Below, one piece after another: positions 1,866-9,298 of a stretch of DNA of 45,628 bases. Every line of letters begins with the position of its first letter. Position 1 is the first letter of the stretch. A program made the position numbers and the translations under genes. The stretch covers positions 1-45,628 of the forward strand of contig JANJVH010000061.1 of assembly GCA_024710195.1 (NCBI GenBank), written 5' to 3'. This DNA comes from Candidatus Rifleibacteriota bacterium. GTDB taxonomy: Bacteria > Muiribacteriota > Ozemobacteria > Ozemobacterales > Ozemobacteraceae. The notes below the pieces were generated by a model that saw nothing but the letters and a program-made list of their open reading frames with translations, ran no database searches and was not told the origin of the DNA.

Positions 1866-2621
1866 ATGCAGAATTTTGCGGAGGCTGGTGTGGCATTTCA
1901 GAGAACTTTTCATCTTCCCGGGCTCGATCTTGAGGCTTTGTGCGCCGGTGACCAGAATCATCATTCTGCTGTCATCATTCTTCACGGTCTGGGGGTTTCA
2001 AAAGAAGTTCAGCTGCCGGAACTCCAGCGTCTCAGAGCTTCGGGGTTTTTCGCCATCGCCGTCGATGCACCGCATCACGGTTCACGCCAGGATGGTCTGC
2101 TCGAAATATTCAGGGAACAGGCTGGCCATGCCCGGCATCATCTGCTGCTTTCGATCGTGCTGCAGCATGCTTCCGAAGTCAATCAGCTGATGCAGCAATT
2201 GCGCGCGAGCGGCAAAAAAGTCTGTGTTGTCGGCATTTCGATGGGCGGGCACGTGGCGTTTACGCAGCTGCGTATGGCCGAGAAGCCTGATCTTATCGCT
2301 CCTTTCATCGCCACGCCTGATTTTAGAACCCGTGAGCCGGCAGGCTTACTGCCGCCCAGCCCGGCAGAAACCTGTGGTCCGGCCGATCATATCGATGAAG
2401 TTTTTCCGGCTTCTCTGTTCATGGTTGCTGCCGGCAGTGATACTGTCGTCAGACCCGAGGCGGTGCGGGGCTTTGCTGAAAAGCTGCGACCGTTGTATCA
2501 GAGTGCACCTGAAAAGTTAGAGTATCACGAATACGAACTTTCTGAGCACATGATGCGGCCGGCCGACTGGTTCGACGCCTGGGAAAAATTCACCGAACGT
2601 CTGCAGCGCGAAGGCTTCTGA
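1866..2621 (+). CDS. alpha/beta-fold hydrolase (esterase/dienelactone-hydrolase-like)
   Basis: 251 aa. Contains HGLG (oxyanion region), the GISMGGHVAF nucleophile-elbow motif (GxSxG) and a C-terminal His. Its stop overlaps the start of the next gene (TGATG). Confidence 0.6.
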   Translation: MQNFAEAGVAFQRTFHLPGLDLEALCAGDQNHHSAVIILHGLGVSKEVQLPELQRLRASGFFAIAVDAPHHGSRQDGLLEIFREQAGHARHHLLLSIVLQHASEVNQLMQQLRASGKKVCVVGISMGGHVAFTQLRMAEKPDLIAPFIATPDFRTREPAGLLPPSPAETCGPADHIDEVFPASLFMVAAGSDTVVRPEAVRGFAEKLRPLYQSAPEKLEYHEYELSEHMMRPADWFDAWEKFTERLQREGF

Positions 2622-3394
2622 TGTTCAGTTTTTCGCCCATCGGCTACATGCGCTGCAGTCGCGGCTACCACCAGGAACAGCCGATGCAGGGCGTTCTTTC
2701 TGAATCCGAGGGCCATATCGAGCTGGTAAAGGGCTTTAACTACGAGCAGGGCCTTAAAGATCTCGAAGGTTTCGACCGGGTCTGGCTGCTGTATGTTTTT
2801 CATCACAACAGCAGCTGGAAACCTCTTACCAATCCGCCATACTCCGACGGGCAGGGTCGCAAGGGCGTTTTCGCGACCCGTTCGCCTTATCGCCCAAATC
2901 CGCTCGGGCTCAGCTGTGTCGAACTGAAGCGCATCAGCGGCAACCGCGTCTATGTCGCTGGTTCAGATCTGTTGAACAATACGCCGGTTCTCGATATCAA
3001 GCCTTATATCTGTGAATATGACAGTTTTCCGGGGTCGCGGCGTGGCTGGCTCGAAAATGTCATCAAAGAAAAATATGCTATCGACTTCAGCGCTGCTGCT
3101 GCCAGTCAGCTTGATTTTCTCAGCCGCCGGGGTGTAGACCTGGCCGGGGTCATAGATACGCAGCTGGGGCATAATCCTTTTGATGCAACGCGTAACAAAT
3201 TCGTTAAAACCGATGCGGGTGGAATTTTGCGCTTCAGAAGCTGGCGTATTCATTTCAGGTCTGACGAACGGCAGATTTTTGTCGATAGAATAGTATCGGG
3301 TTATGAAAGCTTCGATCGGCTGCTCGGCGACGACAGCAGCAGCGATCAGGCGGTTCATCGCGAGTTCTGCCGGCTTTTTCCTGAGGCTGGCTGA
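2621..3394 (+). CDS. trmO: tRNA (N6-threonylcarbamoyladenosine) methyltransferase TrmO/TsaA (YaeB family)
   Basis: 257 aa. Carries TsaA-like domain motifs: RSPYRPNPLGLSCVELK and DLLNNTPVLDIKPY. It has a roughly 90-aa C-terminal extension. Confidence 0.75.
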   Translation: MFSFSPIGYMRCSRGYHQEQPMQGVLSESEGHIELVKGFNYEQGLKDLEGFDRVWLLYVFHHNSSWKPLTNPPYSDGQGRKGVFATRSPYRPNPLGLSCVELKRISGNRVYVAGSDLLNNTPVLDIKPYICEYDSFPGSRRGWLENVIKEKYAIDFSAAAASQLDFLSRRGVDLAGVIDTQLGHNPFDATRNKFVKTDAGGILRFRSWRIHFRSDERQIFVDRIVSGYESFDRLLGDDSSSDQAVHREFCRLFPEAG

Positions 3395-4359: not shown

Positions 4360-4575
4360 ATGAGTCACGAATGTACCAAGTGCCGGGGAACCGGAAAGTG
4401 TCCTGTCTGTGGGGGTTCTGGTAAGTTTGTCGAAGGCATCATTGCCGCCAGCAACATGTTCAAGGAGAAAGACATCTGTCCATTCTGCCGCGGAAACCAG
4501 AAGTGCAGCACCTGCAGAGGTATCGGTCAGATAGCTGTCGAAGGGCATGGGCTGTTGCGCCCGCGTTTCGGCTGA
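4360..4575 (+). CDS. standalone DnaJ-type cysteine-rich zinc-finger protein (4x CxxCxGxG), 71 aa
   Basis: CTKCRGTG, CPVCGGSG, CPFCRGNQ and CSTCRGIG form four CxxCxGxG repeats, as in the DnaJ CR domain. A GGAGGA RBS precedes the start. Confidence 0.6.
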   Translation: MSHECTKCRGTGKCPVCGGSGKFVEGIIAASNMFKEKDICPFCRGNQKCSTCRGIGQIAVEGHGLLRPRFG

Positions 4576-4583
4576 GAACCGGG

Positions 4584-5351
4584 TTGTTTAAATCAGTTTT
4601 ACGAATACTGCCAGCAGTTTTGCTGGCGGTGTTTCTGCTTTCGTCGGCTTTTGCAGCTGAAATCAGAGTTTACCGGCTCAATTATGCCCGACCTGAGTCG
4701 GTTGCTGCCGTCTGCACCAGTATTTTCGGCGGTCAGGGCACCTTTGTCGCTTCGGCGAATATCAATGCACTTGTCGTCAACACCGACGACAAAGAGCTTT
4801 TCAGGGAAATAGAGAAGCTGGTCGCGGCGCTTGACCGCAAGCCTGCTACGCTGCGCTTCTCGGTGCAAAGCCTTGGTGAGAGTCTCGAAACACAGCATCG
4901 ACTTAAAGCCGGGCCGGGTCGTGGGCCCGGATTCAATACTACCAGCAGTCGGTCATCGCGCAGTTCGCAACGAAGCGTGCTGGCGCTGGAATTTGCCAAA
5001 GCCGCTTTTACCGACGACCAGATCAGAATTTATTCGTTTCCGGGCTGGTATGGTGATGAGACCCATGTTCTGACGATTTCACACGGTATGAAGGTTTCGG
5101 GCCATGTTACCGAGGCCGGTCGCATCATGGTGCAGGTCTGGTATGCCGAAGACAGCGGCAGCGACACTGAGCAGCTGCTTACAGAGCTCGAAGTCGAGCC
5201 CGGCCAGTGGGTAGAATTTGGGGGCCTGACTCAGGGCGGCGCTGACCGTTCGCGCGCGACTGAGATTGGCAAAGACGGCGGTATCAACCTGAAAAAGGGT
5301 CGGGTTCAGACCGATCGCAGGTTTGCCATACGCGTTGATATGATCAGGTGA
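4584..5351 (+). CDS. secreted protein with a secretin-N (NolW-like) domain
   Basis: A putative TTG start at 4584 gives a signal peptide MFKSVLRILPAVLLAVFLLSSAFA. This is followed by IRVYRLNYARPESVAAVCTSIFGG...ASANINALVVNTDDKELFREIEKLVAALDRKPATLRFSVQSL, the pattern of the Secretin_N domain of GspD/PilQ. There is no secretin C-domain. The start codon is uncertain. Confidence 0.5.
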   Translation: MFKSVLRILPAVLLAVFLLSSAFAAEIRVYRLNYARPESVAAVCTSIFGGQGTFVASANINALVVNTDDKELFREIEKLVAALDRKPATLRFSVQSLGESLETQHRLKAGPGRGPGFNTTSSRSSRSSQRSVLALEFAKAAFTDDQIRIYSFPGWYGDETHVLTISHGMKVSGHVTEAGRIMVQVWYAEDSGSDTEQLLTELEVEPGQWVEFGGLTQGGADRSRATEIGKDGGINLKKGRVQTDRRFAIRVDMIR

Positions 5352-5353
5352 TA

Positions 5354-6277
5354 TCAGAAAATCGAGATGCCGGTGCGCGTCGTGAAGAGCTCGAGCGCTT
5401 TCATGCCGACCAGTGAGTTGCCATGCCGGTTCAGTTCAGGTGACCAGACGCAGATGCTGAACATCTTCGGAACCACGGCAACGATGCCGCCACCGACGCC
5501 GCTTTTGCCCGGCAGTCCGGCGCAGAAAGCAAACTCGCCCGATTCGTTGTAGAGGCCGCAGGTCTGCATCAAGGCATTGACGCGCTTTGCCTGGCTCTGG
5601 GTTAGAATCTGCTCACCATTTAAGGGATTAATGCCGCCATTCGCAAGGAAACTGAAGGCCCGCGCCAGGTCGACGCAGCTCATCATCAGCCCGCACTGAT
5701 GAAAATAGGCGTTGAGAACCGCCTCGACATCGTTTTCGATGTTGCCGAAGCTTTTCATGAAGTTTACCAGAGCGGCATTGCGATAGCCGGTCTCGCGCTC
5801 AGAATTGGCGACAACACTGTCGTAGCTGGTTTTCGGGTTTCCGGCCAGGCCCCTGACATAACTGAGAATGTCTTTGAGCGGGTTTTTGCTGATCGAAAGC
5901 AGGCAGTCGGTCGATACGAGTGCCCCGGCATTGATGAACGGGTTACGCGGAATGCCGTTCTCGTGCTCGAGTTGAACCAGTGAGTTGAACGAATTACCCG
6001 ATGGCTCGCGCCCCATGCGTGACCAGAGCTTGTCGCCCCAGGCCCGGAAAACCATCGAAAATACAAAAACTTTTGAAATGCTCTGAATTGAAAAGGGAAC
6101 CAGCGCATCGCCCGCCTGAAAAGTCTTGCCGTCAAGCGTCTGTACTGCAATACCAATCTGATTCGGGTCTACTTCGGCCAATGCGGGAATATAGTCGGCG
6201 ACCCGGCCCTTGCCGATCAGGCTTCTGGTTTCGCTGAGAATTTCTTCGATACAGGTCTGAAAATCGATGTTATTCAT
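5354..6277 (-). CDS. glsA: glutaminase A
   Basis: 307 aa with glutaminase family motifs throughout: YIPALA, SISKVF and the serine-dependent beta-lactamase-like fold. Confidence 0.9.
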   Translation of the reverse strand: MNNIDFQTCIEEILSETRSLIGKGRVADYIPALAEVDPNQIGIAVQTLDGKTFQAGDALVPFSIQSISKVFVFSMVFRAWGDKLWSRMGREPSGNSFNSLVQLEHENGIPRNPFINAGALVSTDCLLSISKNPLKDILSYVRGLAGNPKTSYDSVVANSERETGYRNAALVNFMKSFGNIENDVEAVLNAYFHQCGLMMSCVDLARAFSFLANGGINPLNGEQILTQSQAKRVNALMQTCGLYNESGEFAFCAGLPGKSGVGGGIVAVVPKMFSICVWSPELNRHGNSLVGMKALELFTTRTGISIF

Positions 6278-6292
6278 AGGCTGCTATGGCTG

Positions 6293-6814
6293 TCAGCACT
6301 TAACGCCGCTGGTTTCGCAGCTGCCGTCGCAGTTGTGACCGATTTCACCGGCAGTCAGCCCCAGGTATTCGCTGAGACGGCCATCGGCCTTCATCTGTTC
6401 GAATTCGGCGTCAGAAGTGACAATGCCGGCTTTTTTGAAAAGCCGCTTGAGAATTGCGTCCTGAATCGCCAGCTGCAGAGACCTGACCGCCAGCAGTGAG
6501 CAGTGGATCTTGCTTTCGGGCAGGCCGTCGAGCGCATCGACAACCTGCTGGTCGGTTATCTTGAGTGCATCTTCAATGCGCAGACCTTCGGCAATTTCAG
6601 CGGTGATGCTGGTGGTGGCAATCGCTGCCGGGCAGCCTTTGATGCGATACCTGATGGTTTCGACTTTCTGATTGTCTTCAGAAATGTAGACGGTCATTTC
6701 GACAAAATCACCGCAGTCGGGGTCGCCGATCATGCCGATACCGTGGTAATTTTCGAGGTGGCCGGTGCGGGTCGGGTTATAAAAATGCTGCATGACTTTG
6801 GCGCTGTAATTCAT
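6293..6814 (-). CDS. IscU/NifU-like Fe-S cluster scaffold protein with a Cys-rich C-terminal extension
   Basis: The N-terminal 125 aa match IscU (GDPDCGD, GCPAAIATTS, KIHCSLLA: three Cys ligands). The C-terminal approximately 45 aa end with HNCDGSCETSGVKC. A GGAG RBS precedes the start. It lies 15 nt upstream of glsA on the same strand. Confidence 0.8.
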   Translation of the reverse strand: MNYSAKVMQHFYNPTRTGHLENYHGIGMIGDPDCGDFVEMTVYISEDNQKVETIRYRIKGCPAAIATTSITAEIAEGLRIEDALKITDQQVVDALDGLPESKIHCSLLAVRSLQLAIQDAILKRLFKKAGIVTSDAEFEQMKADGRLSEYLGLTAGEIGHNCDGSCETSGVKC

Positions 6815-6880
6815 TTTTCTCTGGCTCCATCTGCGGCGAAAACAGAATGATTTTCGTCAGAAATTTTGTGACTGGCTATT

Positions 6881-7219
6881 TTAGAAGAGCGTGTCACACA
6901 GCTGGTCATTAACGGCCTGCAGGGCAGCTTCAACCGCTGATGTGTCGCCGTATACGGCGATCAGGGTCATGTGGGTTGGGCAGACGCCACGAATCTCGGC
7001 GACTTGCACTGCCGCTGCCTTTTCTGCGATGTCAGAAGCGGCGAGAATGGCCGAAACCGGGCCCTGAATCAGGCCGACGGCGTCGGTCGGCTGTTTGTAT
7101 TTTTCAAAATACTGATTATCGACGCGGCGACCTTCGAGAATCGCCCAGAAACCCTTTGATGGGCGCTTTACCAATCTGATGGTGACGCCAATGCTGCGAT
7201 TGCTGTTGAATTCGTTCAT
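6881..7219 (-). CDS. EutS/PduU-type (circularly permuted) bacterial-microcompartment shell domain protein
   Basis: 112 aa. DAVGLIQGPVSAILAASDIAEKAAAVQVAEIRG...LIAVYGDTSAVEAALQAV aligns with BMC-domain consensus and with EutS (GDVSAVEYALKQV). A GAGGGA RBS precedes the start. Same strand as the IscU-like gene and glsA. Confidence 0.5.
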   Translation of the reverse strand: MNEFNSNRSIGVTIRLVKRPSKGFWAILEGRRVDNQYFEKYKQPTDAVGLIQGPVSAILAASDIAEKAAAVQVAEIRGVCPTHMTLIAVYGDTSAVEAALQAVNDQLCDTLF

Positions 7220-7303: not shown

Positions 7304-7340
7304 AAAATAAAACTCCCCCGCAGCGATTGCCGCAGGGGAG
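7304..7340 (-). terminator. Rho-independent terminator of the secreted-protein gene (minus strand)
   Basis: A GC-rich imperfect hairpin CTCCCCCGCAGCG/CGCAGGGGAG is followed on the minus strand by TTTTATTTT. Confidence 0.45.
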
Positions 7341-7354
7341 CACTTGAGCGGTGC

Positions 7355-8518: not shown

Positions 8519-9298
8519 ATGAGAACCAGGCAAATGTTGTTGTTTCTGGTGTTTCTTTGTTTGACTACATTCACCGGCACTCTGGCAGAGCGCTCTATCG
8601 TTCCGCCTTACGAGCCGATCGACAATCTGGTGCGGGTGACCGTAATCGGCGATGAGCGTGGGCCGCTGAGCGCTTACCCGGCGTACCGTTACGAAAAATA
8701 CATGCCTGATTCACGTCTGCGCATCACTGCTCGCCAGGGTGAACGCTATTCGATCAGGGTTACCAATACCTCGCGCCGCCGGATTGCACTGACGATTTCG
8801 GTAGATGGTCTGAATATCATCTCAGGCCAGCGCAGCTATGGCGGTTCAAACGAGAGTATGTATGTGCTCAACCCCGGCCAGACTGGTGATTTCGCCGGTT
8901 GGCGGTCGGGCATGAGTCATGTGCAGAGATTCTATTTTACCAGTGCCGGTGATTCCTACGCCGGTCGGCTTGGGCAAAGCGACCAGCTGGGACTGATCAG
9001 AATCGTTGCCTACAGTGAACGCCGTCCGGTGGCATACCTGCCTTACGACTCGCTCAGAAGATCAGAGGCTGAAAGTAAAAGTATGGTCGAAAGCGCCCCC
9101 GGTACCGGTTATGGCGAAAGTTCATGGTCGCCGGTCAGCGAAACCGACTTTAACCCGGAATCATACCCGGGTCAGACCGTCGAAATAAAATACGAATGGT
9201 CGGCACCGCGCTACTACGACCACGACCACGACCATGACCATGACCATGATTACGATCACCCGCACCGCGATTTTGCCGAACCGCCACCGGGTCGCTGA
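8519..9298 (+). CDS. secreted protein with a C-terminal (Asp-His)n metal-binding-like tail
   Basis: Signal peptide MRTRQMLLFLVFLCLTTFTGTLA. A GGGGGA RBS precedes the start. The C-terminus YYDHDHDHDHDHDYDHPH is encoded by a GACCAC/GACCAT hexanucleotide tract at about 9222-9265. Confidence 0.55.
   Translation: MRTRQMLLFLVFLCLTTFTGTLAERSIVPPYEPIDNLVRVTVIGDERGPLSAYPAYRYEKYMPDSRLRITARQGERYSIRVTNTSRRRIALTISVDGLNIISGQRSYGGSNESMYVLNPGQTGDFAGWRSGMSHVQRFYFTSAGDSYAGRLGQSDQLGLIRIVAYSERRPVAYLPYDSLRRSEAESKSMVESAPGTGYGESSWSPVSETDFNPESYPGQTVEIKYEWSAPRYYDHDHDHDHDHDYDHPHRDFAEPPPGR

Follow-up and report, generated by a model that had tools for sequence, protein, structure and literature searches.

A GrpU-type microcompartment shell protein encoded in a conserved operon with a tail-bearing IscU-like scaffold in Riflebacteria

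Contig JANJVH010000061.1 of a Candidatus Rifleibacteriota bacterium (assembly GCA_024710195.1; 45,628 nucleotides, called the window throughout) encodes a 112-aa protein that is a GrpU-type, circularly permuted bacterial microcompartment (BMC) shell protein of the BMC-H class. Its gene is followed on the same strand by the gene of a 173-aa IscU-like iron-sulfur (Fe-S) scaffold and by a glutaminase gene. It is already known that Riflebacteria carry a lone GrpU-type gene. Apparently new, within the literature searched, are the diverged pore motif of the protein, a genomic context split from that of canonical GrpU, and its conserved operon, shared with an IscU-like scaffold that bears a tail. We propose that the protein is a satellite Fe-S shell tile of the SPU7 compartment of Riflebacteria, co-transcribed with the cognate U-type scaffold that would load its cluster, a proposal to which we give an about even chance of being right.

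Family, fold and pore of the shell protein

An earlier note on this DNA, made from the sequence alone, had recognised a permuted BMC pattern in the 112-aa protein, had named it EutS/PduU-type and had suggested a search with the Pfam BMC profile (PF00936). The profile matches with 38.3 bits (E-value 1.3e-9, gathering cut-off 24.5). The match is partial, residues 47-106 aligning to profile positions 1-60 of 75, and it follows an N-terminal extension of 46 residues, which points to a circular permutation. An AlphaFold2 (AF2) model of the monomer, built with 31 homologues, has a predicted local distance difference test score (pLDDT) of 85.6 and a predicted template-modelling score (pTM) of 0.78, and places an extra strand (residues 13-18) and helix (22-31) ahead of the core. 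The best Foldseek matches to this model are all permuted BMC proteins: GrpU (4OLO and 4OLP), engineered permuted PduA (5HPN), the permuted HO BMC-H protein (6NLU), EutS and PduU. Profile coverage, model and structural matches therefore agree on the permuted pattern that the earlier note had pointed out.

Sequence and structure also single out GrpU among the permuted families. GrpU holds ranks 1-5 in the Foldseek search, with target-normalised template-modelling (TM) scores of 0.79-0.88 for 4OLO and 4OLP, and phmmer against the PDB gave E-values of 7.6e-17 for GrpU 4OLO and 2.1e-11 for GrpU 4OLP, as against 0.084 for PduU and 0.15 for EutS. PduU and EutS share the circular permutation and the size of the window protein, but their structural likeness to it lies at the level of the general fold, and both lack a pore Cys and an Fe-S cluster. 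The name EutS/PduU-type was thus imprecise and we rejected it; in annotation the gene should be called GrpU-type, not EutS. With GrpU the protein shares the permuted topology, a length of about 100-115 aa and a single pore-loop Cys in a G-x-C-P motif. Identity with PduT, to which the earlier note had compared the protein as a possible Fe-S-loaded shell component, was rejected as well, since the window protein is a single domain and not a tandem BMC protein, and scores 18.4 bits against the NCBIfam model eut_PduT (TIGR02526), whose cut-off is 250.3. What the analogy rests on is a shell protein in which a pore Cys serves as ligand to an Fe-S cluster, a proposed electron conduit in PduT and a predicted feature of the window protein. 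PduT is, however, an unpermuted tandem-domain BMC-T trimer with three Cys ligands and a [4Fe-4S] cluster, and its partner is the flavoprotein PduS instead of a scaffold. Homologues of the window protein, 59-99% identical, come from metagenome-assembled genomes (MAGs) labelled Candidatus Riflebacteria, Rifleibacterium or Ozemobacteraceae.

GrpU is defined by the pore motif G-X-C-P-Q-N/H, and its equivalent Cys is required for the 420-nm Fe-S absorbance (Ferlez 2019, PMC6325248). The window protein aligns to this motif with G-V-C-P-T-H, in a loop that the AF2 model places between strands 72-76 and 86-91. It therefore falls outside the motif definition while keeping its Gly, Cys, Pro and His. G78, C80 and P81 are invariant in 31/31 aligned homologues (alignment A1), and in the clade as a whole the Gln of GrpU is replaced by Thr or Ser (33 GVCPTH, 5 GVCPSH and 1 GVCPSQ). 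Its homology to GrpU and the invariance of its pore Cys make it very probable that the protein is loaded with Fe-S, as the earlier note had suggested. Both GrpU crystal structures are without a cluster, and six symmetric Cys would make an odd ligand set.

The protein also has near-matches to the motifs of shell tiling. Basal BMC-H proteins carry KAAN and (P/A)RPH as facet-interface motifs (Sutter et al. 2021, PMC8217296), to which K67-A-A-A and K18-R-P-S of the window protein are similar, not identical; D63 and K67 are invariant, and K18 and P20 are conserved in at least 90% of homologues. The corresponding edge motifs of GrpU (4OLO) are KAVG and KSPT, so that in these motifs the window protein is closer to basal BMC-H than GrpU is. 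The near-invariance of these interface motifs suggests that the GrpU-like protein may still tile with other hexamers.

The scaffold gene and its pairing with the shell gene

The 173-aa protein scores 111.2 bits against NifU_N (cut-off 22) and remains below the cut-off of each NCBIfam equivalog (NifU_clost 126.9 vs 187.9; IscU 88.5 vs 192.4; SufU 45.4 vs 92.5). Its canonical ligands are invariant: C34 and D36 in CGD, C61 in GCPAAIA, and H104 and C105 in HCS. In fold and in this set of three Cys, one Asp and one His it resembles IscU and clostridial-type NifU, from which it differs by a conserved C-terminal extension of about 50 residues after the core; furthermore, no cysteine desulfurase gene adjoins it in any locus compared. 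The earlier note had pointed to an extra Cys cluster at this end and asked whether it is conserved beside BMC genes. The motif H-x-C-D-G-S/T-C (here H160-x-C162-D-G-S-C166) is invariant in 25/25 operon partners, whereas the terminal C173 is variable, so that the idea held for the motif and not for the last Cys. The AF2 model (pLDDT 89.4) comprises the core and a long helix (104-128), then two short helices (135-151), and carries the motif in a tail that is disordered. Disorder of this kind is what would be expected of a mobile arm.

The long form is restricted to Riflebacteria plus a few relatives. Among the matches listed, those of at least about 50% identity are long forms from Riflebacteria; identity then falls abruptly, and what follows are ordinary NifU proteins, 125-145 aa in length, of other phyla. 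Long-form IscU-like and GrpU-like proteins have similar numbers of sequence clusters, and the NifU_N matches labelled Riflebacteria are all of the long form, with no short form of this phylum among the 120 matches listed.

To compare neighbourhoods we gathered 114 loci by exact-protein look-ups, one scan of a genome collection and one metagenome scan, and annotated them with phmmer against reference proteins. They collapse to 91 unique GrpU cores, 40 with the diverged pore motif CP[T/S]H of the window clade and 51 with the canonical CPQ[N/H]. The two groups differ sharply in context. Canonical grpU is reported to occur almost exclusively in glycyl-radical-enzyme microcompartment (GRM) loci, and here 48/51 canonical cores have a BMC, EutN, activase or PduV neighbour within 10 kb, usually with EutN immediately downstream; over the same distance such neighbours of the CP[T/S]H cores number 0/40. 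Conversely, a NifU_N gene lies directly downstream in about 31 of the 40 CP[T/S]H loci, the window included, and in 0/51 canonical ones. The GrpU-IscU junctions of Riflebacteria are tight, ranging from 4-nt overlaps to 17-nt gaps, or else hold a short TrmO-like gene (TrmO_short) with 4-nt overlaps. The coupling of a shell gene to an Fe-S scaffold, which the earlier note had found unusual in the window, is conserved in the clade. The same cannot be said of the glutaminase, also considered part of that coupling. The 307-aa protein is an ordinary GlsA equivalog (NF002133 458.8 vs 368; TIGR03814 418.4 vs 255.4; Pfam Glutaminase 386.9 bits), and although the order shell gene, IscU-like gene, glutaminase gene recurs in L009, L013-L016, L032 and L094-L097, it occurs in 8 of the 40 unique loci, those of a Rifleibacterium sub-clade plus L032; glutaminase does not adjoin in HGW-Riflebacteria-1 and -2, R. 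amylolyticum, O. sibiricus and others. With a distribution this narrow, its adjacency is a lineage-specific feature of one sub-clade and lies outside the conserved module, and we rejected a functional coupling.

The spacer between the shell and scaffold genes records the history of the operon. In L013 and L014, whose GrpU proteins are 99-100% identical to that of the window, alignment places a 170-aa TrmO_N-like gene at this position (9931-10443 in L013). Remnants of both its ends survive in the window spacer, about 35 nt from the 5' end, where ATA stands in place of ATG, and about 25 nt from the 3' end; the 66-nt gap is a recent deletion scar of a TrmO_N-like gene that belonged to the ancestral operon. 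The deletion allele of the window recurs in three metagenome contigs (L094, L096 and L097), while a 99%-identical contig (L095) keeps the gene, and L015 has lost it by an independent, different deletion. The GrpU-IscU pairing has thus survived repeated loss of the gene in between. A short TrmO_N-like gene is carried by about 20 of the 40 unique CP[T/S]H loci, and its overlap with the GrpU stop codon amounts to 4-8 nt in deeper lineages. The 170-aa paralogue, which has the TrmO_N domain only, passes the NCBIfam TrmO equivalog cut-off; a full-length TrmO of 257 aa is encoded at 2621-3394 of the window.

Deeper-branching relatives show further gene orders. In L012 (5571-9323) these are Nitro_FeMo-Co, GrpU, a sigma54 activator, an MrpORP-like carrier whose 376 bits against NF041136 stay under the cut-off, and NifU; in L005 (10001-13181) GrpU, TrmO_short, a sigma54 activator and an MrpORP-like gene; in L008, L036, L048 and O. 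sibiricus PadR, GrpU, TrmO_short and TauE, with Nitro_FeMo-Co or MrpORP-like genes nearby in some (both within 8 kb in L008, L036 and L048); and in L007, L039 and L109 Nitro_FeMo-Co, GrpU and a 4HBT thioesterase. The components of the ORP-like clusters that contain the GrpU-like gene in these deep-branching relatives (L012, L005, L109) are a Nitro_FeMo-Co-domain protein, a PAS-sigma54 activator, an MrpORP/ApbC-like Fe-S carrier and the tailed NifU.

Two further observations concern GrpU-like genes elsewhere. One MAG has two of them, each on a short contig of its own (L027, CAZMWO010000512.1; L028, CAZMWO010000786.1) and with identities to the query of 78% and 80%, which are either paralogues or the product of a mixed-strain bin. 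A second lone GrpU lineage with a canonical G-[VI]-C-P-Q-H motif was seen in unclassified MAGs (L037:7060-7398, L044:9974-10297, L046:5985-6290); its flanks hold no BMC genes, and its neighbours are galactokinase-like, class II aldolase-like and pseudopilin-like genes.

A compartment satellite or a cytosolic module

The clade of the window protein has already been catalogued (Sutter et al. 2021, PMC8217296) as a lone GrpU-type BMC-Hp protein "found by itself in a satellite location" of SPU7 loci. The members listed there are OZSIB_2457 (O. sibiricus), A2W80_05930 (Riflebacteria GWC2_50_8), CVV42_03805 (HGW-Riflebacteria-2) and CVV41_09040 (HGW-Riflebacteria-1), and the Riflebacteria entries are labelled grpU-like1, shell family Hp_sage and bmcType SPU7 (sat). 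A2W80_05930 is our protein P0021 (81-83% identical). The clade is the same as these satellites, which the catalogue describes as lone and with a pore Cys; the catalogue entry, which has the gene by itself, mentions neither the IscU-like and TrmO-like partners nor the diverged pore motif. According to the same source, satellite shell genes are common in BMC systems, and an SPU7 main locus comprises AldDh, PTAC, a pfam02502 enzyme, one BMC-H, BMC-P and a PduS/PduT pair. A main locus is on record for O. sibiricus and for HGW-Riflebacteria-1 and -2, with main-locus PduT and BMC-P genes catalogued in O. sibiricus and HGW-Riflebacteria-1, and Riflebacteria GWC2_50_8 is marked 'fragmented (sat) (omitted)', that is, no main locus was found (PMC8217296). 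A literature search for microcompartments of Riflebacteria or Rifleibacterium returned nothing beyond this catalogue, and no earlier description of a shell-protein/IscU pairing was found in the literature searched, most subscription journals being outside its scope. Thus the shell gene, which the earlier note called an orphan, is alone within the window, but at the level of the phylum, in other genomes, it belongs to a clade of satellites of SPU7 main loci, and a complete BMC locus elsewhere is what the note itself had named as speaking against its reading; and of what that note called unusual, the lone GrpU gene was on record, while the pairing with IscU appears undescribed.

On our proposal the GrpU-like protein would assemble into hexamers, with an oxygen-labile Fe-S cluster bound in the central pore among six Cys80. 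Its gene being a satellite, apart from the main locus of the SPU7 (sugar-phosphate-utilisation) BMC, which also has the PduS/PduT Fe-S pair, the protein would enter the shell as a minor tile and provide a redox-active or electron-conducting pore. The IscU-like protein would assemble the cluster on its canonical Cys/Asp/His site, and its flexible H-x-C-D-G-S-C tail may help to deliver the cluster or ligate it transiently at the GrpU pore, which would make it the cognate maturation scaffold of the shell protein. The TrmO_N-like gene would be an ancestral member of the operon, recently deleted here and presumably dispensable, and the glutaminase gene a passenger.

Several observations weigh against this proposal. 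BMC genes lie within 10 kb in 0/43 Riflebacteria-type loci, so that the link to a compartment rests on the genome-level co-occurrence recorded in the catalogue; the pore motif departs from the GrpU definition (Gln to Thr or Ser); and the deeper-branching members sit with MrpORP-like, Nitro_FeMo-Co and sigma54-activator genes, in what resembles a cytosolic metallocluster module. Furthermore, an O. sibiricus-type genome has a tailed IscU-like gene without an adjacent GrpU gene, set among DUF134, DUF5320, DUF364 and Nitro_FeMo-Co genes and syntenic with the GrpU flank of L011, and a distant tailed homologue (P0123, 38% identity) has no GrpU nearby and lies after a sigma54 activator and before DUF364. 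Because of these two contexts the tailed protein is not strictly dedicated to GrpU, and a strict association, which they weaken, was set aside.

Most of these points could instead indicate a role independent of any compartment. The GrpU-like hexamer would then be a soluble Fe-S or metallocluster carrier, or a redox partner, in a sigma54-regulated cytosolic biogenesis module comprising the tailed IscU-like protein, an MrpORP/ApbC-like carrier, a Nitro_FeMo-Co protein, DUF364 and the short TrmO-like protein, akin to the ORP cluster of Desulfovibrio and pared down in Rifleibacterium to GrpU-(TrmO)-IscU. We regard this as possible but less likely than not. The gene sets of the deeper-branching loci L012, L005, L008, L036 and L048, which resemble the ORP cluster, are the main evidence for such a role: in Desulfovibrio the ORP clusters depend on sigma54 and are composed of these families too (Pardoux et al. 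2019, PMC6345978), the common elements being the sigma54 activator, the MrpORP-like P-loop carrier and the Nitro_FeMo-Co protein. The split in BMC neighbours between the two GrpU groups, the diverged pore and the missing main locus of Riflebacteria GWC2_50_8 point the same way. No BMC-domain protein or IscU is known from the ORP cluster, and ORP-type genes are not in the window. Against a role outside compartments, the inter-hexamer motifs K67AAA and K18RPS, nearly invariant here, would be needless in a soluble carrier; every catalogued Riflebacteria genome with a called BMC type has SPU7; and satellite shell genes are frequent in BMC systems. A more specific version, in which the CP[T/S]H clade is a cytosolic platform that carries or assembles a pore-ligated Fe-S cluster (or an ORP-like metallocluster) under sigma54 control, with the tailed IscU-like protein as partner and ancestrally also with the S-adenosylmethionine-binding TrmO_N-like protein, an MrpORP-like carrier and a Nitro_FeMo-Co protein, seems to us rather unlikely. 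If true, a shell-protein fold would underlie a new branch of Fe-S biogenesis in anaerobes, and any such role outside compartments would be a rare case of the BMC fold being taken over for cytosolic metallocluster handling.

The remaining alternatives concern the neighbours of the shell gene. The IscU-like protein could be the general U-type Fe-S scaffold of the phylum, its adjacency to GrpU arising from shared regulation by iron, sulfur or redox state, or from drift of gene order. The long form of all NifU_N matches listed for Riflebacteria, the tailed forms found apart from GrpU and the lack of an adjoining cysteine desulfurase would all suit this explanation, which is nevertheless quite improbable given that the adjacency is kept across 72%-100% GrpU identity, often with overlapping stop and start codons, that it outlasts two independent deletions of the intervening gene, and that even non-adjacent pairs share a cluster (L012) or a region of about 10 kb. 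It is very improbable that the IscU-like protein is compartment cargo, with helices 135-151 as an encapsulation peptide and a lumenal function in maintaining the PduS, PduT and GrpU clusters. Encapsulation peptides are terminal amphipathic helices (Sutter 2021, PMC8217296), the AF2 model has extra short helices after the IscU core at the C-terminus, and SPU7 is rich in Fe-S proteins; yet the extension, with a Cys/His motif at its end, shows high sequence conservation, where typical encapsulation peptides have poorly conserved linkers, and P0123 has the same extension without a BMC context. Finally, that shell protein, scaffold and glutaminase form one functional unit tying the BMC fold to glutamine and nitrogen metabolism is hardly credible: the 15-nt gap, the common strand and the recurrence of the gene order in other loci speak for it, but its occurrence in a fifth of the unique loci and the ordinary character of GlsA largely refute it.

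The clade makes the nature and assembly of the GrpU pore cluster directly testable. A shell protein hard-wired to its own U-type scaffold with a flexible His/Cys arm offers a direct experimental handle; the pair may give a stable holo-GrpU for structural and redox work, and may serve as a portable cluster-loading part for electron-conducting BMC shells.

Layout of the locus and other genes of the window

The three genes have the arrangement described in the earlier note, on the minus strand, with gaps of 66 nt between the shell and IscU-like genes and of 15 nt (6278-6292) between the IscU-like gene and glsA (Table 1); the peptides quoted there (DAVGLIQG, AEKAAAVQV, AVYGDTSAVEAALQAV and HNCDGSCETSGVKC) are all found in the ORFs.

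Table 1. Features of the GrpU-IscU-glsA locus, in window coordinates
Feature	Position	Strand	Basis
GrpU-type circularly permuted BMC-H (BMC-Hp) shell protein, 112 aa	6881..7219	-	Pfam, PDB, AF2/Foldseek, homologues
Pore loop G78-V-C80-P81-T-H83, predicted Fe-S ligand site at hexamer centre	6971..6988	-	
Spacer of 66 nt, deletion scar of short TrmO_N-like gene	6815..6880	-	alignment with L013 and L014
IscU/NifU_N-type Fe-S scaffold with C-terminal extension, 173 aa	6293..6814	-	NifU_N, invariant ligands, AF2
C-terminal extension of IscU-like protein, residues 120-173	6296..6457	-	
glsA glutaminase of 307 aa, closing the unit	5354..6277	-	NF002133
Intrinsic-terminator-like hairpin	7312..7341	-	13-bp stem, 9 G-C pairs, T-rich tail

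The terminator-like hairpin closes an upstream gene of 238 aa, and the GrpU-like gene therefore opens a new transcription unit; together with the short gaps between the three co-directional ORFs, this makes them one unit. A sigma70 scan between the terminator and the GrpU-like start codon found no promoter. A sigma54 -24/-12 promoter was considered at this place and rejected, since by-eye inspection showed a GGCAC-like element at the wrong spacing to GC.

Searches for compartment genes covered the whole window, with Pfam on 30 ORFs and with phmmer using BMC-H, BMC-T and EutN references against all ORFs of at least 50 aa. In agreement with the earlier note, they found no second BMC-H, BMC-T or BMC-P gene, pentamer gene, glycyl-radical enzyme, aldehyde dehydrogenase or PduL within the 45.6 kb, and no glycyl-radical activase or EutN either. 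An 849-aa ORF (15844-18393, +) has the size of a glycyl-radical enzyme and was rejected as one, being Major-Vault-Protein-like (Pfam MVP_shoulder, 104 bits, plus Vault_3), in a bacterium. A 783-aa protein with VIT (vault protein inter-alpha-trypsin) and VWA domains is encoded 20 kb from it (38859-41210, +).

Close to the operon, a 71-aa Cys-rich ORF (4360-4575, +), in which CxxCxGxG motifs recur as in DnaJ-type zinc fingers, shares some of its sequence with the beginning of a 282-aa ORF that has a Secretin_N domain (4503-5351, +). This pair is an insertion relative to the synteny of L009, and 2 nt separate its end from the stop codon of glsA, which is on the other strand. On the other side, a 259-aa secreted-looking protein (8519-9298, +) has no Pfam match and ends in an (HD)n repeat, YDHDHDHDHDHDYDHPH, which could bind metal; L009 has a homologous 258-aa gene at the same syntenic position. 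Two genes upstream of the GrpU operon lies a 301-aa fusion of a flavodoxin-like domain and a 2x[4Fe-4S] ferredoxin (9412-10317, -). It is syntenic in L009, its adjacency is not conserved in more distant loci, and it could be one of the soluble redox partners for which docking on GrpU has been proposed.

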